Source of the DNA: Pseudomonadota bacterium
GTDB taxonomy: Bacteria > Desulfobacterota > Syntrophia > Syntrophales > UBA5619
Assembly: GCA_018827585.1 (NCBI GenBank)
Contig: JAHJXP010000008.1
Span: 1 to 55,872, forward strand
Direction: 5' to 3'
DNA length: 55,872 nt
This document shows, one piece after another, positions 1 to 16,853 of this stretch (position 1 is the stretch's first letter; each line of letters begins with the position of its first letter). The notes beneath the pieces are model-generated. The model had not been told where the DNA came from. It saw only the letters and a program-made list of their open reading frames with translations, and searched no databases. The translations under genes were made by a program, and so were the position numbers.

Positions 1-176
1 AGACGCTTTTCGTCATTGACGGATCGCAGCCCACGCTCGAGAAGTCCTCGCGAAATATCCCGGATGTGAAGATGGTCAGATCAGAGGGGATCAATGTCTA
101 CGACCTGCTGAAATACGATCATGTTGTGCTTTTGGAACCCGCCATCAAGAAAATTGAAGGGGCTTTGATATCATAA
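1..176 (+). CDS. rplD: 50S ribosomal protein L4, 3' end (partial at window edge)
   Basis: Open frame ending TAA at 174-176, which overlaps the rplW ATG (TAATG). The C-terminal ...INVYDLLKYDHVVLLEPAIKKIEGAL is L4-like, and the position upstream of rplW fits. Confidence 0.75.
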   Translation, partial: TLFVIDGSQPTLEKSSRNIPDVKMVRSEGINVYDLLKYDHVVLLEPAIKKIEGALIS

Positions 177-463
177 TGGAACTGCATCAGATCATAAGAA
201 AGGCGCTGATCACCGAGAAGAGCACCCTTGCCCGTGACGCTGCGAACCAGTACAACTTTGAGGTGAACACGGGTGCGAACAAGATCGAGATCGGGCGGGC
301 CGTCGAGAAGCTCTTCAAGGTAAAGGTGACGGACGTGCGGGTCATGAATGTCCGCGGCAAGAAAAAAAGGACGGGGAAGACCATAGGCGAAAAGCGCTCC
401 TGGAAGAAGGCGGTTGTGACCCTGGCGCCCGGTAACCGAATTGAAACGATGGAAGGCGCATAA
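176..463 (+). CDS. rplW: 50S ribosomal protein L23
   Basis: 95-aa ORF, MELHQIIRKALITEKS...NFEVNTGANKIEIGRAVEKLFKVKV, typical L23. Synteny fits. Confidence 0.95.
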   Translation: MELHQIIRKALITEKSTLARDAANQYNFEVNTGANKIEIGRAVEKLFKVKVTDVRVMNVRGKKKRTGKTIGEKRSWKKAVVTLAPGNRIETMEGA

Positions 464-480
464 ACCGTCTTAATATTGAC

Positions 481-638
481 GCTTTCGTAAAAAGTCGCAA
501 AAACCGAATTCAGGGCGGCTTCGTAAAAAGGCCGAAGGCAAGGCGAGCGAACCCTGAGGAATGAGGCGTACATAGGCGTACACCGCAATGACGAAGGGTG
601 AAGCGTAACGCAGCATCCGGGCTTTTTACGAAGCCGCC
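481..638 (+). repeat. Structured intergenic repeat, copy A (5' CGTAAAAAG module at 486-494, 125-nt core 514-638)
   Basis: The core starts GGCGGCTTCGTAAAAAG and ends CTTTTTACGAAGCCGCC, giving a 17-bp closing stem. It is about 90% identical by hand alignment to the cores at 2212-2336 and 3972-4096. Confidence 0.85.
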
Positions 639-671
639 AATATCAACCCAGCAGGGATGAGGGATAAGGGG

Positions 672-1493
672 ATGGGAATTAAAAAGTACAAACCGACGTC
701 GCCGGGCAGAAGGTTTCAGACCTGTTCGGATTTTGAAGAGATCACCAGAACGGGACCCGAGAAAAGTCTTTTACGCCCGCTGAAAAGGACGGGGGGGCGC
801 AACAACTACGGGAGGATGACCAGCCGCCACATAGGCGGGGGGCACAAGCGCCGGTACCGGCTGATCGATTTCCGGAGGGACAAGCAAGACATTCAGGCCC
901 GCGTGGGATCAATCGAATACGACCCGAACCGGTCGTCGCGGATCGCCCTGCTGAATTATGCCGACGGTGAGAAAAGATACATCATCGCCCCGGTCAAGAT
1001 GGCGGTGGGCGACGCCGTGGTCAGCGGGGAAAATGCCGACATCAAACCGGGAAATACCGTGCCTCTGAAGAATATTCCCCTGGGGACCCTAATCCACAAT
1101 CTGGAGCTGAAGGTGGGCCGGGGGGGTCAGCTGATCAGGGCGGCGGGCGCCTACGGGCAGTTGATGGCCAAGGAGGCGGGCTACGCCCAGGTTCGACTTC
1201 CTTCCGGAGAGGTCAGAAAGGTCTTTCTGGAATGTAAGGCCACCATCGGTCAAGTCGGCAACATCGATCATGAGAACCTGAGCATCGGCAAGGCGGGACG
1301 GTCGCGCTGGCTCGGGCGGCGACCCAAGGTCAGGGGCGTGGCCATGAACCCCGTTGACCATCCGATGGGCGGCGGCGAAGGAAAGTCGTCCGGTGGGCGT
1401 CATCCCTGTACGCCCTGGGGCGTGCCGACGAAGGGACACAAGACCCGCACCAACAAAAGTAGCGATAAATACATCGTAAAGAGAAGAGGTTAA
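672..1493 (+). CDS. rplB: 50S ribosomal protein L2
   Basis: The ORF track frame starts at 657, but the L2 N-terminus [14 protein letters not shown] starts at ATG 672, preceded by a purine-rich SD. The C-terminal GGGEGK...HPCTPWG motif is present. Confidence 0.95.
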
Positions 1494-1496
1494 AAG

Positions 1497-1778
1497 GTGG
1501 CACGTTCAGTTAAGAAAGGTGCGTATATCGAGGAAAGTCTTCTTGAGAAGGTCAGAAGGCAGGAAGCCGCGGGAGGGAAGGCGGTCATCAAGACCTGGTC
1601 GCGCCGTTCCACAATCACCCCGGAATTGATCGGACAGACCTTTGCGGTGCACAACGGCAAGAAATTCATCCCCATCTTCGTGACCGAAAATATGGTGGGT
1701 CACAAGTTAGGTGAATTCGCGCCGACAAGGACATTTTACAGCCACGCCGGAGACCGCAAGACGAAGCTGCGCAAGTAG
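1497..1778 (+). CDS. rpsS: 30S ribosomal protein S19
   Basis: [16 protein letters not shown]...[29 protein letters not shown]. Confidence 0.95.
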
Positions 1779-1837
1779 CAGCGGGCTGCATAGGGGTGGA
1801 CGGGGGGCTATCTCCCATCGGCGGTTTGGAGTAAGTT

Positions 1838-2170
1838 ATGGAAGCAAGAGCAGTTGCCAAGTATATAAGGATGTCGCCACAGAAGGTGCGCCTGGTGGTG
1901 GATCTGGTCAGAGGGAAAAGGGTTGAGGAAGCGAAGCAGATCCTCCTTTTCACGAGAAAATATGCGGCCGGTCCCGTCAGCAAGGCGCTCAATTCTGCGC
2001 TGGCCAATGCAAAGCAGAACCCCAATATCGATGAAAAAATCCTGTTCGTGAAGGAGATCTTCGTCGATCAGGGTCCGTCCCTCAAAAGATGGAGGGCGAG
2101 GGCCCAGGGAAGGGCCGCGGCAATAAAAAAACGGATGAGTCATATCACCGTGGTCCTGGATGAGCAGTAA
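1838..2170 (+). CDS. rplV: 50S ribosomal protein L22
   Basis: MEARAVAKYIRMSPQKVRLVVDLVRGK..., classical L22. Confidence 0.95.
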   Translation: MEARAVAKYIRMSPQKVRLVVDLVRGKRVEEAKQILLFTRKYAAGPVSKALNSALANAKQNPNIDEKILFVKEIFVDQGPSLKRWRARAQGRAAAIKKRMSHITVVLDEQ

Positions 2171-2180
2171 TATTTGGTGG

Positions 2181-2336
2181 ACTCGTAAAATCTTAGAAGC
2201 CATGAAAAAGGGGCGGCTTCGTAAAAAGGCCGCAGGCAAGGCGCGCGAACCCAGAGGAGTGAGGCGTACTTTGGCGTACGCTGCAACGACGAAGGGTGAA
2301 GCGCAACGCAGCATCCGGGCTTTTTACGAAGCCGTC
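2181..2336 (+). repeat. Structured intergenic repeat, copy B (5' module CGTAAAA at 2184-2190, core 2212-2336)
   Basis: Same 125-nt core architecture as copy A. The closing stem is GGCGGCTTCGTAAAAAG / CTTTTTACGAAGCCGTC, with one G.U pair. Confidence 0.85.
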
Positions 2337-2357
2337 AAGACTTGAGGAGGTGGCAGA

Positions 2358-3005
2358 TTGGGGCAGAAGGTTAACCCGATCGGGTTGAGGTTGGGCGGTG
2401 TGAAGACGTGGCGCTCCCTGTGGTTCGCGGAAAAGAATTATTGCGAGCTGCTCCACGAGGATATCAAGATCAGGAAATTCCTCAAGGAGAAGCTCTACCA
2501 CGCGGGCATCTCCCGGATAGAAATCGAAAGGGCCTCCAATAAGGCCAAGGTGAATATCCACGCTGCCCGACCCGGGATCATCATCGGGAAAAAGGGGTCC
2601 GAGATTGAAAAATTGAAGAAGGACCTCGAGGCGATCACCAAAAGCGAAATGATCATCAATATCCTTGAGGTCCGCAAGCCGGAGATTGATGCCCAGCTGG
2701 TGGCGGAAAATGTCGCCCAGCAGTTGGAGCGACGGGTTGCTTTCCGCCGGGCGATGAAGAAATGTGTGACCGCCGCGATGAAGTTCGGGGCAAAGGGGAT
2801 CCGGGTGAACTGCGGCGGCCGGTTGGGCGGGGCGGAAATGGCCAGATCGGAGTGGTATCGGGAGGGCCGGGTGCCCCTCCATACGCTGAGGGCCGATATC
2901 GATTGCGGTTTTACCGAAGCGAAGACGGCATACGGCCTGATCGGAGTAAAGGTGCTGATATTCCACGGCGAGGTGTTGCCGGTAAAGAGAGAGATTGCAA
3001 AATAA
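2358..3005 (+). CDS. rpsC: 30S ribosomal protein S3
   Basis: [24 protein letters not shown]... with KH domain sequence. Confidence 0.95.
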
Positions 3006-3073
3006 GTGCTTTTCGCGAGGGCCGGCGTCCCGGAAGGTGACGAGGACAAGCGGGCAGAACAGGGGTTTTAAAG

Positions 3074-3496
3074 ATGTTGATGCCGAAAAGGGTTAAATTC
3101 AGGAAACTGCAGAGGGGCCGCATGAGCGGGAAGGCCACCCGGGGGAACACCGTGGCTTTCGGCGAATACGCCCTGCAGGCGACCGAGTGCGGCTGGATCA
3201 CGGCAAGGCAGATCGAAGCGGCGCGGGTGGCGATGACGCGCCACGTCAAGCGCGGGGGGAAGATCTGGATCAGAATATTCCCGCACAAGTCCGTGACGAA
3301 AAAACCCGCCGAGACCCGTATGGGAAAGGGAAAGGGCGCTCCGGAAGAGTGGGTGGCGGTGATCAAGCCGGGAGTAGTCCTCTACGAGATAGAGGGGGTT
3401 TCGAAGGAGATCGCCAAAGAGGCCTTCAACCTGGCGGCCCACAAGCTGCCCATCGGAACAAAGTTTCTTGCAAGGGAGATGTCTGATGAAAATTAA
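3074..3496 (+). CDS. rplP: 50S ribosomal protein L16
   Basis: [25 protein letters not shown]... Confidence 0.95.
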
Positions 3497-3677
3497 GGAG
3501 ATCAGAGATCTTAGCATCGGAGAGTTGCAGCAGAAGAACAGGGAACTCGTGGAAGATTACTTCAAGCTCCGCCTTCGTCACGCCTCGGGACAACTGGATT
3601 CTCCTGCCATGCTGGGCCGCGTTCGCAGGGATATTGCCCGTATCAAGACGGTCCTGGTCGAAAAGGAGGAAAAGTAG
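3486..3677 (+). CDS. rpmC: 50S ribosomal protein L29
   Basis: [37 protein letters not shown]. The start was moved to the internal ATG at 3486, which overlaps the rplP end. Confidence 0.9.
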
Positions 3678-3934
3678 TGGAGCAGCGCGGCAACAAAAAT
3701 ACCATCAAGGGTGTGGTGGTCAGCAACAAAATGGACAAGACGATCGTGGTGCGGGCGGAAAGGCTCGTGAAACACGCCGTGTTTCACAAATACATCAAGC
3801 GTTATGTGAAATACAAGGCCCATGACGAGCAGAACAGCTGTCAGATAGGCGATAAGGTTCTCATCATAGAATCGCGTCCCCTGAGCAGGGATAAACGGTG
3901 GCGGATGCTGAAGATTCTGGGGAAGGCAAAGTAG
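3677..3934 (+). CDS. rpsQ: 30S ribosomal protein S17
   Basis: GTG start overlapping the rpmC stop. ...[32 protein letters not shown]... Confidence 0.93.
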
Positions 3935-3937
3935 ACG

Positions 3938-4096
3938 CACCCGTAAAAAGTCATAAAAGCTTTGAACTGGGGGCGGTTTCGTAAAAAGGCCGCAGGCAAG
4001 GCGCGCGAGACCCGAGGAGTGAGGCGTACTTTGGCGTACGCCGCAACGACGAGGGATGAAGCGCAACGAGGCATCCGGCTTTTTTACGAAGCCGTC
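3938..4096 (+). repeat. Structured intergenic repeat, copy C (5' module 3942-3950, core 3972-4096)
   Basis: 125-nt core, with closing stem GGCGGTTTCGTAAAAAG / CTTTTTTACGAAGCCGTC and central hairpin GCGTAC-TTTGGC-GTACGC. Confidence 0.85.
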
Positions 4097-4189
4097 AAAG
4101 TAGGGCGAACAATGGCGCGGGGTTGCTGTGGCTCGGCGGTTAGAGCTTCGGTCCACGGGTTGGGGACCGCTGCGCAGTGGGGTATTGAT

Positions 4190-4558
4190 ATGATTCAGAT
4201 GCAGACCGTGTTGAATGTGGCGGACAATTCAGGCGCCAAGAAGGTGGCGTGCATCAAGGTTCTCGGCGGGTCAAAGAGACGGTATGCCAGCCTTGGCGAC
4301 GTCATTGTCATCGCCGTAAAGGAGGCTCTGCCGAACTCGAAGGTGAAGAAGGGCGATGTGATGAAGGCGGTGGTCGTCCGGACGGCAAAAGAGGTAAGAA
4401 GACCGGACGGTTCTTACCTGAAATTCGACGACAATTCCGCCGTTCTCATCACGAACCAGATGGAGCCGATAGGAACGAGAATCTTTGGACCGGTGGCGCG
4501 GGAGCTAAGGGCAAAACAGTTCATGAAGATCGTATCGCTGGCGCCGGAAGTGTTGTAA
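4190..4558 (+). CDS. rplN: 50S ribosomal protein L14
   Basis: The L14 N-terminus [18 protein letters not shown] begins at ATG 4190. The longer track ORF from 3962 reads through repeat copy C and is rejected. Confidence 0.93.
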
Positions 4559-4590
4559 ATTAAAGACAGGGAAACGGCAGAGGAACAGAA

Positions 4591-4911
4591 ATGCTGGAAA
4601 AGCGACTGAAAAAAGGGGACACCGTAAAGGTCATCGCCGGGAAAGAGAAAGGCAAGACGGGCAAGATCCTAAGCACGATTGCCGATCGGCAGCGGGTCAT
4701 CGTGGAGAAGATGAATCTTATCAAAAGGCACAAGAAACCCGATGCCAAGGGCAAGGGCGGCATCGTAGAGAAGGAAGGTTCGATACACGTCTCCAACGTG
4801 ATGTATCTGTGCAGTAAATGCGGGACCGGGGTCCGGATCGGATACAAGATCCTGGACGATGGAAAAAAGATGCGTGTCTGCGGTAAATGTCACGAGATTT
4901 TGGATACATAG
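4591..4911 (+). CDS. rplX: 50S ribosomal protein L24 (carries a CxxC...CxxC motif)
   Basis: KOW region [20 protein letters not shown]. Cysteines are at residues 74, 77, 97 and 100. Confidence 0.93.
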
Positions 4912-4922
4912 GCTGGGAAAAG

Positions 4923-5462
4923 ATGGCAAGACTAAAAGAATACTATACCAAGGAAGTCGTTCCGGCGCTCACCAGGGAATTCGGCTATAAGAACCCGATG
5001 GAAGTCCCAAAAATGGTGAAGATCGTCATCAACATGGGACTCGGAGATGCTATTCAGAATATAAAGGTCCTGGACAACGCGGTGGAAGAGTTGACCAGGA
5101 TCGCGGGCCAGAAGCCGATCGTCACGAAGGCGAGGAAATCCATCGCGACCTTCAAGCTTCGCCAGGGGATGTCGATAGGCTGCTGCGTGACCCTCAGAAG
5201 AGAGCGGATGTACGAGTTCTTCGACAGATTGATCGGCGCGGCCATTCCCCGAATCCGCGATTTCCGAGGGATCTCCGCAAAGTCGTTCGACGGCAGGGGT
5301 AATTTCTCTCTGGGACTCAAGGAGCAAATCATCTTTCCGGAGATCGAATACGACAAAGTGGACAAGATCAGGGGCATGAACATCGCCATCGTCACCACGG
5401 CCAAAACGGACGACGAGGCGCGGCAGCTTTTGAAGCTTATGGGAATGCCGTTCAGGAACTGA
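4923..5462 (+). CDS. rplE: 50S ribosomal protein L5
   Basis: [30 protein letters not shown]... The start is at the internal ATG 4923 of the track ORF. Confidence 0.93.
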
Positions 5463-5494
5463 AAGCGGCGGGATATATCTCTGGAGGATTAAGA

Positions 5495-5680
5495 GTGGCA
5501 AAGACATCCTTGATTGTAAAGGCCGGCAGAAAACCAAAGTTTTCGGTGAGGAGCTACAACCGGTGTCCGCTGTGCGGAAGACCGAGGGCCTATTATCGTA
5601 AATTTGATATGTGCAGAATATGCCTGAGAAATCTTTCTCTGAAAGGGGAAATTCCGGGCGTAATCAAATCAAGCTGGTAG
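5495..5680 (+). CDS. rpsN: 30S ribosomal protein S14, type Z (zinc-binding short form)
   Basis: 61 aa, with [20 protein letters not shown] providing four Cys. Confidence 0.93.
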
Positions 5681-5696
5681 AAAGAGGAGCAGTAAT

Positions 5697-6098
5697 ATGG
5701 GGATGACCGATCCGATCGCAGACATGCTCACCAGGATCAGAAACGCCAACCGCGTTCATTTCAAGAGCGTGGATGTGTTGAGCTCGCGAATCAATCTGAA
5801 CATAGCCAAGGTGTTGAAGAAATCCGGCTACATCGGCGGGTATGACATCAAGAAGGATTTGCGCGGGCACGAGGTATTGAGGATATATCTGAAATACCCG
5901 GATGCCAAAAGGACCGTGATTACTGATATTCAGAGGGTCAGCAAACCAGGAAGAAGGGTTTATGTGAGAAGCGAAAAGATTCCTGCGGTGCTCAACGGCT
6001 ACGGAGTCTCCATCCTCTCCACCTCCAAGGGGGTGATGACCGATAAGGAGGCCAGGGAATTGAGCCTCGGGGGAGAAATACTCTGCAATGTGTGGTAA
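5697..6098 (+). CDS. rpsH: 30S ribosomal protein S8
   Basis: [18 protein letters not shown]... Confidence 0.95.
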
Positions 6099-6179
6099 AG
6101 GTCATACATCACCCATGACCTATTGCCATTAACCTGATTTGATAATTTTGATTGGTTTGGGAAATCGGGAGAACGCTTC

Positions 6180-6719
6180 ATGTCGAGAATCGGTAAAATG
6201 CCCGTGGAAATTCCTCCCGGGGTGAAAATCACCCGGGATGAGTCCGTCATCAGGGTCGAGGGCCCCAGGGGAAGGCTTTTCATGGAAGCCCCGAAGGGCA
6301 TCGATGTCATTCTGGGCGAAAGGTTGGTGGAGATCAAAAGGCCGTCCGACGGGAGAAAAGAGAGGGCCTCGCATGGCCTGGTCAGGACCCTGGTGGCGAA
6401 CATGGTCAAGGGGGTCAGCAGCGGGTTTGAAAAGGGACTGGAGATATCCGGGGTCGGATACCGTGCGGAAGTCACCGGGGATAAGCTGAAACTTACGATC
6501 GGGTTTTCCGCGCCGGTCCAGTATCCGATTCCCGAAGGCATCCAGGTCAAGGTCGATAAGCAGGTAAACATCATGGTGTCCGGAATCGACAAGCAGTTGG
6601 TGGGCCAGGTGGCGGCGGAGATACGGGGCCTGAAAAGGCCGGAGCCGTATAAGGGCAAGGGCATCAAGTATGCGGGCGAGAAGATCAGGCGCAAGGTCGG
6701 CAAATCGGTGGGTGCGTAA
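6180..6719 (+). CDS. rplF: 50S ribosomal protein L6
   Basis: MSRIGKMPVEIPPGVKIT... Confidence 0.95.
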   Translation: MSRIGKMPVEIPPGVKITRDESVIRVEGPRGRLFMEAPKGIDVILGERLVEIKRPSDGRKERASHGLVRTLVANMVKGVSSGFEKGLEISGVGYRAEVTGDKLKLTIGFSAPVQYPIPEGIQVKVDKQVNIMVSGIDKQLVGQVAAEIRGLKRPEPYKGKGIKYAGEKIRRKVGKSVGA

Positions 6720-6722
6720 AAA

Positions 6723-6862
6723 ACAAAGTGCTGAGTGCTGAGTGGGGGCGTTTTGACACTCAGTGCTCCGCACTCAGTGCTCCGCACTCAGTACTCAGCA
6801 CTCAGTACTCAGCACTTTGTACTCAGCACTCAGTACTCAGTGCTCCGCACTCAGCACTTTGT
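6723..6862 (+). repeat. Inverted arm (6723-6742) plus a tandem array of 15 heptanucleotides, consensus ACTCAGY (6758-6862)
   Basis: Read directly as ACTCAGT GCTCCGC ACTCAGT GCTCCGC ACTCAGT ACTCAGC ACTCAGT ACTCAGC ACTTTGT ACTCAGC ACTCAGT ACTCAGT GCTCCGC ACTCAGC ACTTTGT. The upstream ACAAAGTGCTGAGTGCTGAGTG is the reverse complement of the unit pairs. Confidence 0.9.
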
Positions 6863-6876
6863 AATGAGGTAGGACA

Positions 6877-7242
6877 TTGGCAACGAAGAGAATTGAAAAG
6901 ATCAGGACCAAGAGGAAGAAGAGGGTCAGAGGGAAGATCTCCGGGACCGAGAAGAGACCGCGCCTGTCCGTGTTCAGGTCTGCCGCGCATATCTATGTTC
7001 AGGCCATTGCCGATGATTCGGGAAGGACTCTGGCCGAGGCGTCGACACTGAGCAAGGAGTTGGAGGGTTCTCTCGGCGCCCCGAAAAAGATCGATTCGGC
7101 AAGAGCGGTGGGGGCGCTTTTGGCAAGGCGGCTGCAGGCCATAGGCATTGACGGGGCCGTCTTCGATCGCGGCAGATTCCTCTATCACGGCCGGGTAAAA
7201 TCCCTGGCCGACGGCGCGAGAGAAGCGGGCCTGAAGTTTTGA
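6877..7242 (+). CDS. rplR: 50S ribosomal protein L18
   Basis: TTG start. ...[27 protein letters not shown]... Confidence 0.93.
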
Positions 7243-7280
7243 GCCTGCGATTCGACAATCGATAGCGAAGGGAACGATCG

Positions 7281-7781
7281 TTGAAAATGAAGAATATGGA
7301 AGAAGTGGAACTTCTCGACAGGGTGATTGCGATAAACAGGACGGCCAAAGTTGTAAAAGGCGGCCGCCGCTTCCGGTTCAGCGCCATCGTCGTGGTGGGC
7401 GACGGGAAAGGGTCGGTCGGCGCCGGCCTGGGCAAGGCCCATGAGGTGCCGGAGGCGATTCGCAAGGGCATGGAGAAGGCCAAGAAAAACATGATCAGGG
7501 TGGCGGTCGAAAACAGGACGATTCCTTACAGCGTCATCGGTCATTACGGCGCTGGAAAAGTCCTTCTCAAGCCCGCTTCCGAAGGGACCGGACTTATAGC
7601 CGGCGGGGCGGTCCGGGCCGTCCTGGAAGTGGCCGGGGTCCAGAACATCCTGACGAAGTGCCTCGGATCGCATAACCCGCACAACCTGGTCAAGGCGACC
7701 ATCGAGGGGCTGGGACAGTTGAAGGCGCCGGCGGACATATCCGCGGCCAGAGGCAGGGGCATTGCTGAAATTAGCGCTTAG
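7281..7781 (+). CDS. rpsE: 30S ribosomal protein S5
   Basis: ...[39 protein letters not shown]... Confidence 0.95.
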
Positions 7782-7792
7782 AGGGGTTAGTT

Positions 7793-7990
7793 GTGGGAAA
7801 AAAGCTGAAAATTACACTGGTGAAAAGTTTCATCGGACGGCCTGAGGCTCAGCGCAAGGTTTTGCGCGGCATGGGATTGGGGAAGGTAAACAGGACTGTC
7901 CTGCTGAACGATACGCCTGAAATACGCGGTATGATCCGGAAGGTCGTTCACCTGGTGGCTGCCGTAGAAGTTGAGGAGAGCGGGAAATGA
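7793..7990 (+). CDS. rpmD: 50S ribosomal protein L30
   Basis: [29 protein letters not shown]... Confidence 0.93.
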
Positions 7991-8430
7991 ATCTGGGAAC
8001 ACTCAAACCGCCGGAAGGCTCGCGGAAGAAGCGGAAGAGGGTGGGGCGCGGCGACGGATCGGGACACGGCGGGACGGCGGGAAAAGGGGCAAAGGGCCAG
8101 AACGCCCGCTCCGGCCACAGCGTCAGGCCCAATTTCGAGGGAGGGCAGATGCCCCTCTCTCGGAGATTGCCCAAACGGGGATTCAAAAATCCCATGCGGC
8201 GGATCATCGCCACGGTGAATATCACGGAGTTGAAACGCTTTCCCGAGGGATCGGTCGTCGACCGTGAGACATTGCTGTCGGCGGGGCTGGTGAAGCGGAA
8301 GGCGGACGGGATCAAGGTATTGGGAAAGGGGGAGATCGGCTTTCCTCTCTCCGTGAAGGTGGATAGGGTCAGCCGGGGGGCGCGGCAGAAGATCGAGGCC
8401 GCCGGCGGTACAGTTGTCGAGGTCATTTGA
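7987..8430 (+). CDS. rplO: 50S ribosomal protein L15
   Basis: ATGA overlap with rpm[35 protein letters not shown]... Confidence 0.95.
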
Positions 8431-9739
8431 CTTGTTAGAAGGCTTAAAAAATATCTCCAAGATACCGGAGCTCCAGAAGCGGATACTCTTTACGTTTCTC
8501 CTGCTGGCGGTCTATCGGATGGGCGCCCATGTCCCGACGCCGGGCATCGACACGGCGGCGCTGGCGGCCTTTTTCGAGCAGGCGAAGGGGTCTCTTCTGG
8601 GACTCTTTGACATGTTTGCCGGGGGGGCGCTGAGCAATCTGTCGGTCTTTGCGCTGGGGATCATGCCCTACATCAGCGCCTCGATCATCCTGCAGCTTCT
8701 GACGGTGGCCGTCCCCTACCTGGAAAAGCTCTCCAAAGAGGGGGAGGCGGGCAGGAGAAAGATCACCCAGTACACCCGTTACGGGACGGTGGTTCTCAGC
8801 CTGATCCAGGGATTTGGAATTTCCATCGGGCTGGAAAACATGGCGGGTCCCACGGGGGCCTCCATAGTCATCACTACCGGCTGGGCATTCCGGCTGATGA
8901 CGGTGATCACCCTGACAGCGGGGACCGCGTTTATCATGTGGCTGGGCGAGCAGATCACCGAAAAGGGGATAGGCAACGGCATCTCCCTGATCATCTTCGC
9001 CGGGATCGTGGTCCGCGGCCCGGAGGCGATCATCAATACCTTCCGCCTTCTGTTTTCGGGCGAGATGGGGATTTTCTTCATCCTCATCCTGATCGTGATG
9101 ATGGTCCTGATCATCGGCGTGATCGTCTTTGTCGAGAGCGGGCAGAGAAGGATCCCCGTGCAGTACGCCAAGCGGGTCATCGGGAGGAAGATGTACGGCG
9201 GCCAGACGACCCACCTGCCGCTGAAGGTCAATTCGGCCGGCGTCATCCCGCCGATCTTCGCCTCATCGATCATCATGTTTCCGGCGACGATCGCGAATTT
9301 CATCCCCCATCCCTGGATGAAATCTGTAGCCGACGCGCTGATCCCGGGGCGGATAGGATATGAACTGCTCTACGTGGCCTTTATCATCTTCTTCTGCTTC
9401 TTCTATACGGCAGTGACCTTCAATCCGGTGGACGTGGCCGACAATATGAGGAAATACGGGGGTTACGTTCCCGGCATCAGGCCGGGCAAGAAGACCGCCG
9501 AATATATCGACGAGATCCTGACGAAGCTGACGTTCGGGGGAGCTCTTTACGTCTCCGCCGTCTGCGTCCTTCCCAGCATTCTGATCAGCTCCTTCAACGT
9601 CCCCTTCTACTTTGGGGGAACGGCCCTGCTGATTGTCGTGGGCGTCGCCCTGGACACGGCCGGACAGATCGAGACCCATCTGCTGACAAGGCAGTATGAA
9701 GGTTTCATGAAGAAGGGCAAGATAGCCAGAAGACGGTGA
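8414..9739 (+). CDS. secY: Preprotein translocase subunit SecY
   Basis: 441-aa multi-TM protein, ...[30 protein letters not shown]... The start is uncertain: the track start at 8414 overlaps rplO, and an in-frame TTG at 8432 just after the rplO stop is equally plausible. Confidence 0.93.
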
Positions 9740-9780
9740 TGGATAAGGGAGCATGACCGCCGGAAAATCGGATCATTGAC

Positions 9781-10530
9781 ATGGTCATCCTGAAATTGCC
9801 GGAGGAGATTGAGAAGCTGCGGACGAGCAATCTGATCGTAGCGGAGATCCTGGAAGAGTTGCGGGAAAGGATCAGGCCGGGCGTCACGACCCGCGAACTG
9901 GACAGCCTCTCCGAAGGGCTGTCGCGCAAAAGTCGGGTCAGGCCCGCGTTCAAGGGATACCGGGGTTACCCCTTCGCCCTCTGCACCTCGGTGAACGGCG
10001 AGGTGGTTCACGGGATGCCGTCGGACAGGCCGCTCGTCGCCGGAGACATCCTGAGTCTCGACTTTGGCGTGGACTACAGGGGTTATTTCGGCGATGCCGC
10101 CATCACCGTACCGGTGGGGGCCGTCTCCGCCGAAGCGCGGAAACTGATGAAGGCGACCGAAGAGGGTCTTTACAACGCGATCCGGCAGGCGCAGGCAGGC
10201 AACCGCCTGGGAGACGTTTCAGCCGCCGTCCAGGAGCGCGTCGAAGCGGACGGCTTTTCAGTCGTCAGGGATTTTGTCGGGCACGGCATCGGCAGAAGCC
10301 TTCATGAAGAGCCGCAGATCCCCAATTATGGCGTGCGGGGAAGAGGGATAGAGCTGAGGCCGGGAATGGTCCTGGCCATAGAGCCGATGGTCAATGAGGG
10401 AAGTTACCGGGTGAAGATTCTGCCGGACGGGTGGACCGTGGTCACCGAGGACGGGAAGCTGTCGGCGCACTTTGAACATTCCGTAGCGATTACGGAAAAC
10501 GGGCCGGATATCCTCAGCCTGCTTCGGTGA
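9781..10530 (+). CDS. map: Type I methionine aminopeptidase
   Basis: 249 aa with the ...GYRGYPFALCTSVNGEVVHG...DFGVDYRGYFGDAA...HGIGRSLHEEP... motifs. Confidence 0.93.
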   Translation: MVILKLPEEIEKLRTSNLIVAEILEELRERIRPGVTTRELDSLSEGLSRKSRVRPAFKGYRGYPFALCTSVNGEVVHGMPSDRPLVAGDILSLDFGVDYRGYFGDAAITVPVGAVSAEARKLMKATEEGLYNAIRQAQAGNRLGDVSAAVQERVEADGFSVVRDFVGHGIGRSLHEEPQIPNYGVRGRGIELRPGMVLAIEPMVNEGSYRVKILPDGWTVVTEDGKLSAHFEHSVAITENGPDILSLLR

Positions 10531-10578
10531 AGGGCGGGAACCGGCGATAAAGAAGCATCGGGCTTCAGAGCGGGAATT

Positions 10579-10797
10579 ATGGCGAAGGAAGAAGCGATAG
10601 AGGTTGAAGGCCGGGTGATCGAACCCCTGCCCAATGCCATGTTTCGTGTGGAACTGGAAAACGGTCATCGCGTTTTGGCCCATATTTCCGGGAAGATGAG
10701 GATGCATTTTATCAAGATTCTTCCGGGCGACAAGGTCACGGTTGAGTTGTCTCCCTATGACCTGACCCGGGGAAGGATCGTTTACAGGACTAAATAG
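10579..10797 (+). CDS. infA: Translation initiation factor IF-1
   Basis: [41 protein letters not shown]... Confidence 0.95.
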
Positions 10798-10852
10798 CGA
10801 AGGCGGCCGGCGCCTCCGCGCCATGCCGTCGGCGGATAGGGGAGTGATGATC

Positions 10853-10966
10853 GTGAAAGTACGTTCTTCGGTCAAGAAAATATGCGAAAAGTGCAAGATC
10901 GTCAAAAGGCGTGGCGTGGTGCGTGTGATTTGCGAGAATCCGAAACATAAGCAGCGTCAGGGATAG
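10853..10966 (+). CDS. rpmJ: 50S ribosomal protein L36 (zinc form)
   Basis: Not in the ORF track because it is under 60 aa. Hand translation from GTG 10853 gives [37 protein letters not shown], with stop TAG at 10964-10966. Confidence 0.9.
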
Positions 10967-10993
10967 GGATTCAGATTTTCAGGAGGTTGTCAG

Positions 10994-11362
10994 GTGGCAC
11001 GAATTGCAGGTGTGGATTTACCCAAAAACAAAAGGATGGAGATCGCCCTGACCTATATCTATGGAATCGGGCGGGCAAAATCGCAAGAGATCCTTCGCGA
11101 AGCCGGCGTCAGCCCCGACACGAAAACGGATCAGCTTGCCGATGCGGAGATTACCTCCATCAGGAATGTTATCGACAGGGAACAGAAGGTGGAAGGGGAT
11201 CTGCGTCGGGAAGTGTCCATGTCCATCAAGAGGTTGATGGACGTCGGGACCTACCGCGGATTGCGGCACCGAAAAGGACTCCCCGTAAGGGGCCAGCGAA
11301 CGAGCACCAACGCCAGGACAAGAAAAGGACCGAGAAGGTCGATTGCCGGCAAGAAGAAATAG
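10994..11362 (+). CDS. rpsM: 30S ribosomal protein S13
   Basis: [26 protein letters not shown]... Confidence 0.95.
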
Positions 11363-11383
11363 GGGAACGTATTCGGAGGACCA

Positions 11384-11776
11384 ATGGCAAAGCCAGTCAG
11401 GAAAACAGGGAAGAAGAAGGAAAAGAAAAATATCTCCGAGGGGATAGCTCACATTCAGTCGACCTTTAACAATACGATAGTGACGATTACCGATCTGAGC
11501 GGGAACGTCATTGCCTGGGCTTCCGCCGGGATGCAAGGGTTCAAGGGATCGAGGAAAAGCACCCCTTTTGCGGCGCAGATGGCGGCGGAGGATGCCGTGA
11601 AGAAGGCAAGGGAACACGGGGTGAGATCCGTTCAGGTCTACGTCAAGGGACCGGGATCAGGGCGGGAATCGGCCCTGCGATCTCTGCAGCTGGCAGGGCT
11701 CAGGATCAGCCTGATCCGCGACGTGACCCCGATTCCCCACAACGGGTGCCGTCCGCCCAAACGCCGCCGGGTGTAA
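11384..11776 (+). CDS. rpsK: 30S ribosomal protein S11
   Basis: ...[30 protein letters not shown]... Confidence 0.95.
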
Positions 11777-11833
11777 AACAACGAACAACAATCGATGAAC
11801 GTTGATAATTGATCACTGATCAGGGAGGCATTT

Positions 11834-12460
11834 TTGGCAAGGTATAGAGAATCCACATGCAGGTTGTGCCGGAGAGAAGGTTTGAAGCTGTTTCTCAAAG
11901 GGGACAGGCGCTATAGTGAAAAATGCGCCTTCGAAAGGCGGAGTTATGCGCCGGGAGATCACGGCCAGATGCGGAAGAAATTCTCCGATTACGGCGTCCA
12001 GTTGAGAGAGAAACAGAAGCTAAAGAGGTTGTACGGCCTGCTGGAAAAACAGTTCCGGGGATATTTCGAAAAAGCAGACCGGCAAAAAGGGATTACCGGC
12101 ACCAACCTCCTCATTTTCCTGGAGAGAAGACTGGACAATATGGTCTTCAGGATGGGCTTTGCCAATTCACGCACGGAGGCGAGACAGCTTGTCAGGCATA
12201 ACCATTTTACGGTCAGCGGAAAGCCGGTCAACATCCCCTCCTATCTGATCAGGCTTGGCGACGAGGTCCAGGTCCGCGAGGGGAGCCGGAAGGTCGAGAA
12301 GATCGTCGAGGCCATGGAAACCGTAGCCAGGCGGGGTGTTCCTCAATGGCTGGAAATCGATAAGACAAACTTCAGGGGCGTCGTGAAGACGCTTCCTACC
12401 CGTGAAGAATTGACGATGCCGGTAAAGGAACAGCTGATCGTGGAGCTTTATTCCAAGTAG
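11834..12460 (+). CDS. rpsD: 30S ribosomal protein S4
   Basis: [25 protein letters not shown]... with an S4 domain. Confidence 0.95.
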
Positions 12461-12497
12461 CAACCAACCAGGTATCCGAAGGGCAGGGAAATAAATT

Positions 12498-13514
12498 ATG
12501 CAGAGAAACTGGCGCAGTTTGATACAACCGAAAAGAGTGGAGATCGACGAGGCGACCCATACCCGTTTTTACGGGGAGTTCAGCTGTCAGCCGCTGGAGC
12601 GCGGCTTCGGCATCACCCTGGGAAATGCGCTGCGGAGGATCCTCCTCTCTTCCATTCAGGGAGCGGCCATCGTTTCCGTGAAATTTGACGGGGTCCTTCA
12701 TGAATTTTCCACGATCCCCGGGGTAAAAGAGGACGTCACGGATATCATCCTGAATCTCAAAGGCGTGCGGCTGAAGCTTCATCAGGGCGTGCCGCGGACC
12801 ATTCAAATCGATGCCTCCCGGGAAGGGGCCATCACCGCGGCGGATATCATCACCGACGGGACGGTGGAGATCCTCAACCCGGACCACTATATCGGCACGC
12901 TGGTGGACGACGCCTCCCTCAAGGCGGAATTGGTCGTCAAGATGGGCAAGGGCTATGTTCCCGCCCAGAAGGAAAGGGATCCGGAGCAGCCCGAGGGCAC
13001 CATCAACATCGATGCGATCTACTCTCCGATCAAAAAAGTCAATTATACCGTGACCTATGCCAGGGTGGGCCAGGTTGCGGACTACGACCGCCTGATTCTT
13101 GAGGTATGGACCGACGGGAGCGTTCTTCCCGAGGATGCCGTGGCCTATGCGGCAAAGATCCTCAAGGAGCAGTTGGACCCCTTCATCAATTTCTCTGAGA
13201 TTGAGGAAGAGGAGGAAGAACGCGATATCCCCAAGGAGGAAGATATCAACGACGTCCTCCTGCGGCATGTGGATGATCTGGAACTCTCCGTCCGTTCGGC
13301 AAATTGTCTCAAGAACGCAGGCATCAATCTGATCGGGGAACTCGTTCTGAAGACGGAAGCGGAAATGCTCAAGACAAAGAATTTCGGCCGAAAATCGTTG
13401 ACTGAAATAAAGGAGATCCTGACTGATTCCGGTCTCGGCTTCGGCATGAAGCTGGATTTCCCTCCGTGGAACAAGGCCGAAAAACCGGAAGAGGCTGCTG
13501 CCGATGCCGAATAA
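12498..13514 (+). CDS. rpoA: DNA-directed RNA polymerase alpha subunit
   Basis: 338 aa. ...[18 protein letters not shown]... and the C-terminal domain ...[23 protein letters not shown]... Confidence 0.95.
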
Positions 13515-13546
13515 CGATTCAGTGATAACCCGGAAAAAGGTTCAAT

Positions 13547-13575
13547 GCAGCAGATGGATTTTTTGCGAAGCCGTC
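13547..13575 (+). repeat. Solo 3'-end fragment of the structured repeat
   Basis: GCAGCAGATGGATTTTTTGCGAAGCCGTC aligns to the last ~30 nt of the cores (GCAGCATCCGGGCTTTTTACGAAGCCGTC). No 5' arm is present. Confidence 0.6.
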
Positions 13576-13605
13576 AGATTTGTCTGCGGGAAAGGGTGAT
13601 ATTCG

Positions 13606-14007
13606 ATGGGACAGGGTAAATTTGGCAGCAAGTTAGGGAGAACGACGAGCCATCGCAAGGCCATGCTTAGAACGATGGTGACCTCCCTTTTGAAACATGA
13701 GAGGATCAAGACCACTGAAATCAAGGCGAAAGAGCTCAGGAAAGTGGCAGAGAAGATGATCACGCTCGGCAAGAGGGGCGATCTCCATGCGCGGAGACAG
13801 GCCGCCGGGTATGTCCGGGATCGGGAGATGGTGGGAAAGCTCTTCGGGGAGCTGTCCGCAAGGTACCGGGAGAGAGCGGGCGGCTATACGCGGATCGTCA
13901 AGACCGGTTACCGCGTAGGCGACAACGCCCACATGTCCGTCATAGAATTCGTTCGCGATGCGGAGGCGGAGAAGGAAAAGAAGAAATCACCGGCCGCGAA
14001 GAAATAA
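13606..14007 (+). CDS. rplQ: 50S ribosomal protein L17
   Basis: ...[29 protein letters not shown]... Confidence 0.95.
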
Positions 14008-14016
14008 TACATGTGT

Positions 14017-14050
14017 AGGGCGGGAGGAGTTCACCCCGCCCTCTTTTTTT
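14017..14050 (+). terminator. Rho-independent terminator after rplQ
   Basis: AGGGCGGG (14017-14024) pairs with CCCGCCCT (14035-14042), followed by a T7 run at 14044-14050. Confidence 0.8.
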
Positions 14051-14066
14051 ACCTGAATTTCCCCCC

Positions 14067-14094
14067 TTGTATTTTTAATCAGAAACGATATAGT
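14067..14094 (+). promoter_or_regulatory. Candidate sigma70-type promoter for the 86-aa gene
   Basis: TTGTAT (14067-14072), 16-nt spacer, TATAGT (14089-14094). Confidence 0.35.
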
Positions 14095-14161
14095 TGCTCC
14101 CGCAAGCGTTAGCGCTGAGCGGTCTTTTGTCCGATAATGTCATGCGGAAGGAGGTCCGGTT

Positions 14162-14422
14162 ATGGCTGAACGGAAGGTCGGGGAGGTGGTCAAGTATTTC
14201 GTAAAACCGGGAGTTGCAGCCGTCAAGATCACCGACGGGGAGGTCGGGATCGGGGATACCCTCAAGTTCACGGGACATACCACGGATGTTACCATGCCTC
14301 TCGATTCCATAGAGGTCAATAATCAGAAAGTGCTCCGTGCGGCTGCCGGCGACTATGTCGGCATCAAGGTTGTTGACCGCGTCCGTCCCGGCGATGAGGT
14401 CTTCAAGATAACGGCAGATTAG
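14162..14422 (+). CDS. Small protein resembling EF-Tu domain 2 (translation elongation factor-like beta-barrel)
   Basis: 86 aa. ...GVAAVKITDGEVGIGDTLKFTGHTTDVTMPLDSIEVNNQKVLRAAAGDYVGIKV... resembles the GTP_EFTU_D2 barrel. A good SD (GGAAGGAGG) lies upstream. Confidence 0.55.
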   Translation: MAERKVGEVVKYFVKPGVAAVKITDGEVGIGDTLKFTGHTTDVTMPLDSIEVNNQKVLRAAAGDYVGIKVVDRVRPGDEVFKITAD

Positions 14423-14544
14423 GCGCGCCGGCTGCAGGGGGCTGTGCCCCGGTTTGCCAACGGCAGGCGTACCCGCAGCCGCGGGGATGAGCCGGCGCAG
14501 TTATACTGTTGCCTGTTTGCGTGATCCGTGAATGAAGGGTGGCG

Positions 14545-14755
14545 ACCTCGTAAAAAGTCTTAAAAGTCGCGAAAAGGAGACGACTTCGTAAAAAGGCCCC
14601 CGGCCTTCGCCGGGGCAGGCTCCGGCAAGGCGCGCAAGTACCCTCCCTCAGGAATGAGGCGTACTGTGGCGTACGCCGCAATAAGCCTGCCCCTGCGGAA
14701 GCAGGGGAAGGATGAAGCTTTAGCGCAGCATCCGGACTTTTTTTACGAAGTCGTC
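14545..14755 (+). repeat. Structured intergenic repeat, copy D (5' module 14549-14557, expanded 177-nt core 14579-14755)
   Basis: It has the same ends, with compensatory changes GACGACTTCGTAAAAAG / CTTTTTTTACGAAGTCGTC. It has the same central hairpin and two inserted hairpins, at 14598-14615 and 14690-14707. Confidence 0.85.
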
Positions 14756-14769
14756 AAGGGTGGCGGAGA

Positions 14770-15550
14770 ATGGAAATCAGGGTGTTGGGTTGCCATGGTT
14801 CACAGATCGCCGGATACGGCCTTACGGGTTTTCTGATCGACTCGAAGACCCTGCTCGATGCCGGAGCGGTGACGTCGGCCCTGACACTCGAAGAGCAGGC
14901 CGGTGTTGAGAATATCCTGCTCACCCACGCCCATCTGGATCACATCCGGGAGCTTGCCTCCCTGGTTGACAATATCGGCTATTTCAACCGGGACCATCCG
15001 CTGACGGTCGTCGCCCCCCCCCTTTGTGATCGAGATGCTCAGGAAGCACATCTTCAACGGCGTCATCTGGCCCGATTTTTCCGTCATCCCCAGTGCAAAG
15101 AAGCCGGCTATGCGGTATCTCGCCATCCGACCGGGCGAAAAGCTGCAAATCGGCCGACTCAGCGCCACCGCCATCCCGGTCAATCACAAGGTGGAGACGG
15201 TCGCCTATGTAGTGGAAACGGGGGATGAAGGCGGCAAGGTCGCCGCAGTCTTTGTCGGGGACACCGGACCGACGGACGAGATCTGGCGGGTGGCGGGGCG
15301 GGTGGACGGCATCCGGGCCATTTTTATCGAGACCTCGCTGCCGGAAGAGATGAGGGACGTAGCCGAACTGAGCGGCCACCTGACCCCTGCGGGTCTCGCC
15401 GGTGAACTGGATAAACTGGGGCCGTTTCCCCACGGGATCTACCTCTACCACATGAAAGTCCAGTATCGCGAGGAGATAAGGCGCGAGATCGACCGGTTGG
15501 GCATCCCCAATATTCACATCCTGCAAGACGGTCAGGTGATCCGGATCTGA
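14770..15550 (+). pseudogene. Class II 3',5'-cyclic-nucleotide phosphodiesterase-like MBL-fold hydrolase, interrupted by a +1 frameshift in a C9 tract
   Basis: Two overlapping ORFs (14770..15228 and 15026..15550) together make one roughly 260-aa protein. It has the LLTHAHLDHI metal motif and ...LRKHIFNGVIWPDFSVIP... Removing one C from C9 (15014-15022) restores ...LTVVAPPFVIEMLRKHIF... Confidence 0.8.
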
Positions 15551-15557
15551 GCCCGTC

Positions 15558-16853
15558 GTGACTCTCAAGGCACAATCAACCATGACCTACCGGGATACAC
15601 TCAAATATCTCTCCAGTCTCAACAGAATGGGCATCCGCCTCGGGCTTGATCCGATCCGCTCCCTGCTGGAGCGGCTTGACAATCCCCAGAACAGCTTTCC
15701 TTCGGTGCTGATCGCCGGGACAAACGGCAAGGGGTCGGTGGCGGCGATGACGGCCGCAATCCTCTCCGCCGGCGGATTCAGAACCGGACTTTACACCTCT
15801 CCGGACCTGATCGATTTCCGGGAACGGATCCGGATCGACGGGAGGATGATCGGCCGCAGGGAAGTGTGCATCTGTGCGGAACAGGTAAAAGGGCAAATCA
15901 GTGAGGACATGAGCTATTTCGAATTTCTGACCGCGATGGCCTTCCTCCACTTTCGGCGGCGGCAGGTGGATATCGCCGTTCTGGAGATCGGAATGGGGGG
16001 GAGATTGGACGCCACCAATGTCGTCTCTCCCCTCGTCTCGATCATCACCAACATCTCCCTTGACCACCGGGAGTATCTCGGAGGCACGCTGGCCGAGATC
16101 GCCCGGGAAAAAGGGGGGATCATCAGGGAAAGAGGGATCTGCCTGACCGCGGCCCGGCAGAAACTGGTCATAGAAACCCTGGCGGCAATCTGCCGGGAAC
16201 GAGGGGCTGCGCTCTACAGGTTGGGGAAGGATATCCGCACGACGATCCACCGGGACGGGACATTTTCCTACCGAGGCATCGGGCAACGTCATGAGCGCCT
16301 TATCTGCCCGCTCGCGGGGAGGCATCAGTTCAAAAATGCCGCTCTGGCGCTGGGCGCCGTCGAGCTGCTTGGAGACGCCGGTTACTCCGTGCCGGGGCGG
16401 GCCATTTCCGAAGGCCTGAAGCGGACGCGCTGGGAAGGACGTCTGGAGGTCCTCCGGCGTGCGCCGCTGCTGCTTGTGGATGGCGCCCATAATCCGGCGG
16501 GGGTGGCCGTCCTCTGCCGGGCGTTGGAAAGAGATTTTCCCCGCCGCCGGTTGTTTCTGATCTTCGGCGTCATGGGCGATAAGGACTACCTGAGGATGGC
16601 CAAGAGGCTCTTCCCCCTGGCCGACAGGGTGTTTCTTACCTGTCCGTACAGCGAACGGGTCCTCCCCCCCGCTGCCCTGCTGCCGGCGGCCAGGCGTTTC
16701 CATCCGGCAGTCGAAGTCGTCGAAAACCCCGGCGACGCCCTGCAGCGCGCCCTATCGCTGGCCGGAAAAGAGGACCTCGTCTGCGCCGCCGGCTCCCTGT
16801 ATCTGGTGGGAGAAATTAAAAAAAGCCATGGGGCAATGATCGACGATGAATGA
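15558..16853 (+). CDS. folC: Folylpolyglutamate synthase / dihydrofolate synthase
   Basis: ...VLIAGTNGKGSVAAM... P-loop of the Mur ligase family. The start could instead be the in-frame ATG at 15582. Confidence 0.88.
   Translation: MTLKAQSTMTYRDTLKYLSSLNRMGIRLGLDPIRSLLERLDNPQNSFPSVLIAGTNGKGSVAAMTAAILSAGGFRTGLYTSPDLIDFRERIRIDGRMIGRREVCICAEQVKGQISEDMSYFEFLTAMAFLHFRRRQVDIAVLEIGMGGRLDATNVVSPLVSIITNISLDHREYLGGTLAEIAREKGGIIRERGICLTAARQKLVIETLAAICRERGAALYRLGKDIRTTIHRDGTFSYRGIGQRHERLICPLAGRHQFKNAALALGAVELLGDAGYSVPGRAISEGLKRTRWEGRLEVLRRAPLLLVDGAHNPAGVAVLCRALERDFPRRRLFLIFGVMGDKDYLRMAKRLFPLADRVFLTCPYSERVLPPAALLPAARRFHPAVEVVENPGDALQRALSLAGKEDLVCAAGSLYLVGEIKKSHGAMIDDE

Follow-up and report, generated by a model that had tools for sequence, protein, structure and literature searches.

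The window considered here, a stretch of 55,872 nucleotides from a bacterium of the order Syntrophales, carries four full copies of one repeat, referred to as A, B, C and D, which are in register and all on the plus strand (Table 1). Copies A, B and C occupy spacers of a ribosomal protein operon. Copy D lies outside this operon, as an earlier note made from the sequence alone had described, and is bordered upstream by a small ORF with weak similarity to EF-Tu domain 2 and downstream by a split class-II phosphodiesterase / metallo-beta-lactamase gene (Pfam). It ends 14 nt upstream of ORF 14770-15228, the start side of the phosphodiesterase gene. The motif CTTCGTAAAAAG, allowing up to two mismatches, occurs 14 times in the window against 2.6 occurrences expected, which is far beyond chance. 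Two ORFs of the window, 2160-2345 and 3962-4558, run through copies of the repeat. Copy D is identical or nearly so in five public contigs of the same species, and the window sequence is matched by two groundwater MAGs (GCA_018827665.1 and GCA_018825885.1).

Copy D comprises 215 bp (14541-14755, plus strand), of which the core makes up 177 nt (14579-14755). The sequence bears out the 5' module, the closing stem, the central hairpin, the 177-nt core and the two 7-bp capped hairpins pointed out in the earlier note, except that the left end, placed there at 14545, is in fact 14541.

Table 1. Copies and remnants of the element in the window, and the internal parts of copy D
Feature	Position	Strand	Sequence or remark
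Copy A	478..638	+	between rplW and rplB; duplication AATATT (472-477) / AATATC (639-644)
Copy B	2176..2336	+	between rplV and rpsC; flanks ATATTT / AAGACT, duplication decayed
Copy C	3934..4096	+	between rpsQ and rplN; duplication AAAGTA at 3928-3933 and 4097-4102
Right-end-like fragment	13543..13576	+	between rpoA and rplQ
Copy D, left target-site duplication	14535..14540	+	AAGGGT; sits at the family-wide 6-bp offset
Copy D, outer-left terminal inverted repeat	14541..14557	+	GGCGACCTCGTAAAAAG; upstream consensus GAYGRMC+TCGTAAAAAG, 83 complete copies among the matches listed
Copy D, 5' module	14549-14557	+	CGTAAAAAG; part of the outer-left terminal inverted repeat
Copy D, spacer between outer-left and inner-left repeat	14558..14578	+	poorly conserved by column conservation
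Copy D, inner-left repeat, 5' arm of the long closing stem	14579..14596	+	GACGACTTCGTAAAAAGG; from folds and covariation of pairs 32-52/136-156
Copy D, 5' extra hairpin	14598..14615	+	CCCCGGC-CTTC-GCCGGGG; same module and site in L244, L267, L276 and L471
Copy D, CAGGCT	14616..14621	+	predicted to pair with AGCCTG 14684-14689, probability ~1.0 (base-pair probabilities)
Copy D, conserved core	14622..14683	+	holds GGCAAGGCGCGC and the central hairpin
Copy D, central hairpin	14658-14677	+	GGCGTAC-TGTGGC-GTACGCC
Copy D, 3' insert	14684..14707	+	AGCCTG, then hairpin CCCCTGC-GGAA-GCAGGGG (14690-14707)
Copy D, GGATG...CATCC segment	14710..14733	+	predicted local hairpin in D; pairs across the rod in short copies
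Copy D, right terminal inverted repeat, 3' arm of the closing stem	14737..14755	+	CTTTTTTTACGAAGTCGTC
Copy D, right target-site duplication	14756..14761	+	AAGGGT
Solo end of the element	49318

The outer boundaries of the repeat are marked by short direct duplications of the flanking DNA. Among the matches listed, 65 of 142 complete copies have flanks that agree at all six positions, compared with 1.1 on average and 6 at most when left and right flanks are randomly re-paired. When the boundary is slid base by base, the flanks match only 7 nt upstream of TCGTAAAAAG, exactly where the conserved GAYGRMC starts. The duplicated hexamer has the consensus A-W-N-N-W-T (or, more loosely, A-N4-T), and the duplication counts as 5 or 6 bp depending on whether the first A is assigned to it or to the element. 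In the window it is perfect for D and C (6/6), reduced to 5/6 for A and decayed for B. The hexamer around D belongs to a direct repeat of 10 nt in full (AAGGGTGGCG), the left copy of which extends to 14544. Two gene signals are kept at these insertions. At copy C, the duplication and the first G of the element together restore the rpsQ stop codon TAG (3932-3934), and the right duplication of D, together with GGCGGAG, likely holds the ribosome-binding site of the phosphodiesterase gene (AAGGGTGG..., start at 14770).

The duplications enclose terminal inverted repeats of 17 bp, the left one (GAYGRMCTCGTAAAAAG) being the inverted complement of the right one (CTTTTTACGARGYCGTC); GAYGRMC plus TCGTAAAAAG on the left mirrors CTTTTTACGARGYCGTC on the right in at least 83 copies. 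The 5' module of the earlier note is therefore the outer-left terminal inverted repeat, and the right end pairs with an inner, second copy of the left repeat to make the closing stem. The length of the spacer that separates the two left repeats differs among subfamilies through deletions at model positions 14-24. Complete copies among the matches listed measure 134-215 bp, with a median of 162, and so stay below the limit of about 600 bp for a MITE. Read by eye, the consensus has TGA or TAA stops in all three plus-strand frames and is thus without coding capacity.

Copies were gathered by three pattern scans of public genomes, followed by nhmmer on every fetched locus, and at least 230 non-redundant copies were recovered in this way. 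A first scan with the central hairpin alone was unspecific, and only about a dozen of at least 110 loci were real. The third scan, aimed at insertions at the 5' site, mostly yielded a Desulfobacterales subfamily whose 5' spacer is shorter. The pattern used in a single metagenome scan is itself a generic inverted repeat and gave mostly noise plus one true copy, at locus L471. Carriers among the matches listed are Syntrophus, Smithella, Smithellaceae, other Syntrophales, Desulfobacterales, Desulfobulbales, Desulfuromonadales, Nitrospirae and other MAGs. Syntrophales carry the family in abundance, and it also occurs in other Desulfobacterota-type genomes; it has apparently not been described before. 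No published account of it was found in a literature scope that included the papers on the genomes of Geobacter, Pelobacter and Desulfobacterium but not ISfinder and the Syntrophus aciditrophicus genome paper; the sequence search of supplements was weak, as sequences are printed there with spaces.

The earlier note interpreted the repeat as a dedicated structured non-coding RNA and not as a repeat. Such an RNA could act in cis in the ribosomal protein operon or be a small RNA, and its copies would be paralogous genes. We consider this unlikely, and the genomic distribution contributes much to this judgement. Copies are typically found 5-30 nt from the neighbouring ORFs. Among the matches listed, those between co-directional ORFs point with transcription in 33 cases and against it in 34, and convergent gene pairs hold 36 copies, divergent pairs 15. 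A leader of ribosomal protein genes should keep a conserved orthologous position; the element is absent from all 80 rplB loci fetched, including the closest available relatives (77-83% L2 identity), namely a delta-proteobacterial MAG, Syntrophus aciditrophicus, Smithella and Smithellaceae. The three operon spacers measure 18-55, 12-20 and 43-79 nt in the five closest relatives (loci L330-L334) compared with 208, 187 and 255 nt in the window, and short spacers are present at all three sites in the 14 closest of the loci whose spacers were listed. Between rplV and rpsC, Syntrophus reads TAA-ATCTTTGAGGAGG without the element, and the window reads TAA-TATTT[element]AAGACTTGAGGAGG. The junction in Syntrophus is a textbook empty site. 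Moreover, unrelated interiors occur between the same termini (e.g., L164:28-160), and solo ends are also found.

The fold offers arguments for a structured RNA. From the alignment, the 125-nt core forms one long imperfect hairpin, or rod, in which a 21-bp closing stem is followed by the helices GC/GC, GCGC/GCGC and ATCCT/AGGAT and then by the central GGCGTAC hairpin. Covariation is strong in all helices. It was tabulated for 205 unique copies among the matches listed and compared with column shuffles and with partners slid by 1-3 columns. Standard pairs occupy 93.3% of the cells (shuffles 88.7%, slid partners 32-46%), 31 of 43 pairs are changed on both sides (shuffles about 18 and at most 23, slid partners 20-27) and 404 cells carry double changes (shuffles 97 and at most 116, slid partners 51-113). 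These figures make the compensatory changes real and general, and the element evolves under a pairing constraint. A cloverleaf-type fold, with local CAGG/CCTG and GGATG/CATCC pairings, was rejected, as it gains 0-1 compensatory changes against many in the competing pairs of the rod. In one Desulfobacterales subfamily, a mismatch of 3 nt within the closing stem has become fixed.

The stem ends and inner helices covary through G.U/G.T intermediates. Among the matches listed, pair 36/152 is G-C in 74 copies, G.U in 23 and A-U in 17, and pair 33/155 is A-U in 101 copies, G.U in 7 and G-C in 3. The family consensus of the stem ends is GACGGC...GCCGTC. From this, D departs at one pair, 36/152 (G-C to A-T), and copy A at the other, 33/155 (A-T to G-C), with G.T at the latter in copies B and C. 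The changes in the stem ends of D are compensatory and leave the ends fully complementary, as the earlier note had it; the direction it gave them is half reversed, since D and A each stand one pair away from the consensus.

The constraint may reach beyond the termini. The core is kept across orders, its interior being more conserved than is usual for a MITE, and the copy of a Spirochaetota MAG (L074) retains the core behind a closing stem that is different yet still complementary. This re-coded stem suggests that the core and not the termini alone is under constraint. Whether RNA or DNA is the pairing molecule cannot be read from covariation and fold, because both strands fold alike. The plus strand is far more stable than its shuffles (z = -5.1), but so is the minus strand (z = -5.7); the energies of the reverse and forward strands are -99.5 and -99.3 kcal/mol for D, and -103.7 and -107.9 kcal/mol for the alignment. 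An RNA would also be expected to favour G.U over A.C on its own strand. Inherited pair states do show such an excess on the plus strand (193 G.U to 91 A.C, about 2:1), but this stems from a few states common to subfamilies. Private deviations, present in at most three copies, number 37 G.U and 41 A.C, independently of the orientation to transcription. Neither orientation nor private changes thus single out one strand.

The hairpins that lengthen copy D can be followed through the family. Insertions of at least 5 nt cluster at sites 51-57, 67-80, 86-90 and 105-110 of the core model, with further clusters at 100 and 131-137 in the wider copy set, and at each of these sites the rod has an internal loop or its apical loop. 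Across the family, extra hairpins return to a few fixed sites. The 5' module occurs alone at L244 and L267, the 3' module alone at L010 and L089, and both together in D, L276 and L471. Module stems vary by lineage with local compensation (CCCCGGC/GCCGGGG, CCCCTGC/GCAGGGG, CCCCCGC/GCGGGGG). In D they follow model positions 51-54 and 109-110; the mirror of position 52 is 136, so that the symmetric placement suggested for them does not agree with the consensus fold. The copy at L471 is a double-hairpin form at an unrelated metagenomic locus with a duplication of its own, AAATAA, from which it follows that this form transposed as a unit.

The hairpins of D might instead be later, independent insertions of a separate small palindromic element nested in the repeat. 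Hairpins of the type CCCCGGC-GAAA-GCCGGGG do exist in a different element with the same termini (L164) and outside detected copies at L203 and L145. Nevertheless, such nesting is hardly conceivable for D, where the hairpins have no flanking duplication and where the same hairpins recur at the same two sites at unrelated loci (L471, L276, L244, L267, L010 and L089). Since copies at unrelated loci, with duplications of their own, carry them at the same two sites, the hairpins have travelled with the element. Contrary to the reading of the earlier note, they were thus not inserted at this locus and are modules inherited by a subfamily.

The two modules are related to each other. Taken together with its flank (CCCC...GGGGCAGGC), the 5' module repeats the 3' module (GCCTGCCCC...GGGG) in inverted form. 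Counted by eye, the identity is 19/23 in D and 22/23 in L276; for D, pattern matches confirm it no more closely than to 4 substitutions. The loops of the 5' module (CTTC, TTTC, CTCC) look like reverse complements of the GNRA-like loops of the 3' module (GGAA, GAAA, GAAG) more than like stable RNA tetraloops of their own. Within each copy bearing both inserts, the two loops are at most one base off exact complementarity, and CTTC and TTTC are the exact complements of GAAG and GAAA from other copies. Given these loops, the symmetry of the modules must have arisen at the DNA level. In the predicted ensemble of D, the inserts pair with each other in about 73% of structures (-96.6 kcal/mol) and form two local hairpins in about 27% (-95.7 kcal/mol). 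The modules also alter the predicted architecture of D, through the CAGGCT/AGCCTG pairing and the local GGATG...CATCC hairpin. A TTTTT run comes after the 5' hairpin on the minus strand, where the two resemble an intrinsic terminator. A terminator role on the plus strand is unlikely because three copies are located within an essential operon.

Growth of peripheral helices around a preserved core, in the manner of riboswitches or ribozymes, would account for hairpins that are added at four recurrent sites and whose stems are compensated locally. Indeed, the stems covary and the insertions return to the same sites with locally compensated hairpins, so that neither the independent mutation of stem ends nor the random scatter of insertions that would have weakened the structured-RNA reading was encountered. 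Such variation is, however, common to RNA and to palindromic mobile DNA and cannot separate them. The decision therefore falls to direct tests, and the duplications, random orientation, empty sites, unrelated interiors and folding of both strands all favour mobile DNA; a riboswitch- or ribozyme-like expansion is accordingly improbable.

Database and promoter searches speak against an RNA gene. At gathering thresholds Rfam has no match in the whole window, and at E<=10 only chance-level matches to unrelated models were obtained in window positions 1-16000. A promoter scan found no sigma-70-like promoter in or near D, and a candidate picked out by eye in the 5' module (TTGACG-N16/17-TAAAAG) was dropped, as the scan around D found no promoter. 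As for a parent element, neither a transposase nor an autonomous element with these termini was detected in 3.65 Mb of fetched loci; the search took in repeat pairs at distances of 0.4-4 kb, whether or not their flanks matched. In four of the five pairs with matching flanks (0.5-4 kb) the interior was read, and it consists of host genes or contains no ORF of at least 120 aa. The candidates rejected as parents enclose an acyl-CoA dehydrogenase and a dehydratase-like gene (L121), a mutase-like gene (L283), recR (L245) or no ORF (L313).

Several families of short intergenic repeats are comparable. The ERIC or IRU sequences of enterobacteria are imperfect palindromes of about 127 bp, MITE-like and conserved across genera. 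They lie in transcribed intergenic regions in either orientation, are co-transcribed as RNA hairpins, and give rise to longer variants by insertions at a few fixed internal sites. The present element is similar in size, is likewise an imperfect palindrome over its whole length, is intergenic in either orientation and has longer variants with insertions at fixed sites. It differs in its host phylum, its duplication of about 6 bp (A-N4-T) and its extra outer-left repeat, and there is no sequence similarity. The Correia elements (CREE) of Neisseria are short and non-autonomous, with hundreds of copies near genes and hairpins that can be cleaved by RNase III; their duplication is TA, and they have an IHF site and ends that resemble promoters. 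Here the resemblance is that of a short non-autonomous element with terminal inverted repeats and a target duplication, but again the sequences are not similar, and the Correia duplication is TA. In ERIC and Correia transcripts, the hairpins are reported to be processed or to stabilise flanking segments.

Geobacter genomes have annotated multicopy 'short RNA elements' (e.g., the Gmet_R1005 family), which are about 110 nt long, contain the central palindrome GRCGTAGCGCTGCTACGCC and lie inside biosynthetic operons (PMC2700814). They too are delta-proteobacterial intergenic repeats with a central palindrome in operons, but they do not align with the present element by eye, their central palindrome is another one and they are without the TCGTAAAAAG termini. 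A further comparison is with the extragenic REP palindromes tagged by CGTC (PMC3733652). The present repeat could belong to this REP/BIME type, either mobile through a REP-associated tyrosine transposase or kept by its host, with the CGTC of its stem ends as the tag. It is palindromic and intergenic, resembles the tagged repeats in its GACG...CGTC ends, and like them is enriched between convergent and co-directional genes. Yet its unit of 125-215 nt is much longer than the 20-40 nt of a REP, its 17-bp terminal inverted repeats and 6-bp target duplication are absent from REPs, and its CGTC is base-paired within the stem, where a REP has an unpaired GTAG/CGTC tag. We therefore regard this assignment as very unlikely.

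Copy D thus very probably represents a lengthened member of a family of non-autonomous mobile DNA elements (MITEs). Duplications, terminal repeats, empty sites and unrelated interiors are all found, which leaves the parent element as the one sequence-level hallmark of a MITE that is missing. The unit is about 160 bp long (215 bp in D) and possesses 17-bp terminal inverted repeats and an extra inner-left repeat, the latter closing with the right end an imperfect palindrome of about 125 nt. Its termini would be recognised by a DDE-type transposase which, since the enzyme was not found, is presumably supplied in trans; the inner-left repeat may serve as a second binding site. A staggered cut by this transposase would leave the duplication of about 6 bp. 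Insertion usually falls in the handful of bases separating a stop codon from the ribosome-binding site that follows, with a preference for A/T-rich hexamers. The two G+C-rich hairpins of D come from a master copy with no local insertion involved, and the double-module form has transposed at least twice. Compensatory changes on both arms keep the palindrome. Because copies sit inside operons, they should be co-transcribed as long hairpins and, by analogy with the families described above, may alter mRNA processing or stabilise flanking segments.

It is rather unlikely, albeit worth considering, that the 125-nt rod itself is a functional structure made of RNA or single-stranded DNA. This residual chance derives from the conserved and compensated interior, from the re-coded stem of L074 and from the missing transposase. 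The rod could possibly be a portable module of RNA processing or stability, a long double-stranded substrate for enzymes of the RNase III type, that rewires expression where it lands, the three sites in the main ribosomal protein operon among them. Possibly also, a hairpin of single-stranded DNA is needed by an unconventional mechanism of transposition. If true, a function of the rod would explain why its interior is conserved and compensated across orders and why expansion hairpins are tolerated at four sites only.

The family shows that palindromic mobile DNA also yields compensatory stems and modular hairpins, and that these alone do not mark a structured RNA gene. Many syntrophic and sulfate-reducing Desulfobacterota carry it, and its insertions, three of them within the S10/spc ribosomal protein operon, are placed to the base between stop codons and ribosome-binding sites. 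For annotation, its recognition avoids spurious ORFs such as those at 2160-2345 and 3962-4558, and for assembly it makes the fragmentation of MAGs at repeats easier to interpret. Finally, the family offers a natural system in which to look at the tolerance of long transcribed hairpins in highly expressed operons.

The element, a palindromic mobile repeat read as a MITE, varies in its closing stem, which pairs the inner-left arm with the right end. In a copy from a Spirochaetota MAG the core is conserved while the closing stem has a different sequence with complementarity retained (GGCTGTTCAAAAATGC / GCGTTTTTCAACAGCC). A subfamily found in Desulfobacterales genomes has GATGGCAAAGTAAAAAG as its inner-left arm versus CTTTTTACGAAGCCATC as its right arm, and a fixed 3-nt mismatch (AAA opposite GAA) within the closing stem is common to many of its copies. 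The termini can also enclose something else: at the public locus L164 they flank an interior unrelated to the MITE core, which begins with a hairpin, CCCCGGC-GAAA-GCCGGGG, resembling the 5' module of copy D, and the flanks of this different element match at 4/6.

Features of the window and of fetched loci
Feature	Position	Setting or description	Sequence
rpsQ stop codon	window 3932-3934	made up of the final 2 nt of the left target duplication and the initial G of copy C	TAG
Tandem array	window 6743-6875	14-nt (7+7) units	CACTCAGTGCTCCG / CACTCAGTACTCAG
Fragment, ~55 nt	window 13515-13576	rpoA-rplQ gap	...CCCGGAAAAAGGTT + CAATGCAGCAGATGGATTTTTTGCGAAGCCGTC
Class-II phosphodiesterase / metallo-beta-lactamase gene	window 14770-15550	downstream of copy D	
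Solo terminal repeat	window 49318-49400	followed by G/C-rich hairpin (CCCCTCCCCCGGCGGGAGGGG...)	GATGCTCTCGTAAAAAG
Spirochaetota-MAG copy	L074:1703-1860	core conserved	GCAAGGCGCGCAAATCCTGAGGAATGAGGCGTAC...GACGAAGGATGCAGCGCAACGCGGCA
Different element, ~130 bp	L164:28-160	terminal repeats same as those of the MITE family	

Apparent partial pieces of the element also occur in the window. The rpoA-rplQ fragment looks, from its sequence, like an internally deleted copy; its right end is similar to the Desulfobacterales-type subfamily (GCAGATGG), and its flanks contain no clear target duplication. Arrangements similar to that of the solo terminal repeat, namely an end plus CCCTCCCCC, are seen at two public loci (L121 and L117), and all three may represent another element family with the same termini. 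The tandem array has an inverted partner at 6723-6744, and its Rfam matches are weak and at chance level.

At the left junction (3928-3934), copy C landed on the rpsQ stop codon, regenerating TAG. Mechanical ORFs at 2160-2345 and 3962-4558 traverse copies B and C, the latter ORF starting from a TTG within copy C and joining rplN; both are likely annotation artefacts due to the repeat. On the minus strand of 14598-14624, GCCTTTTTAC comes after the 5' hairpin of copy D, and the scan rates this site as intrinsic-terminator-like; it could act as a block on antisense transcription into the upstream gene. The phosphodiesterase gene consists of two overlapping frames (14770-15228 and 15026-15550), a split found in both public MAG assemblies of the window's species too.

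Finally, the element is present in seven stretches (L530-L536) of IMG/VR contigs classed as viral, one 50-kb contig carrying up to three copies. These stretches may belong to prophages or to the host genome. Should the copies on contigs classed as viral be real, they suggest a route for the spread of the element between orders.
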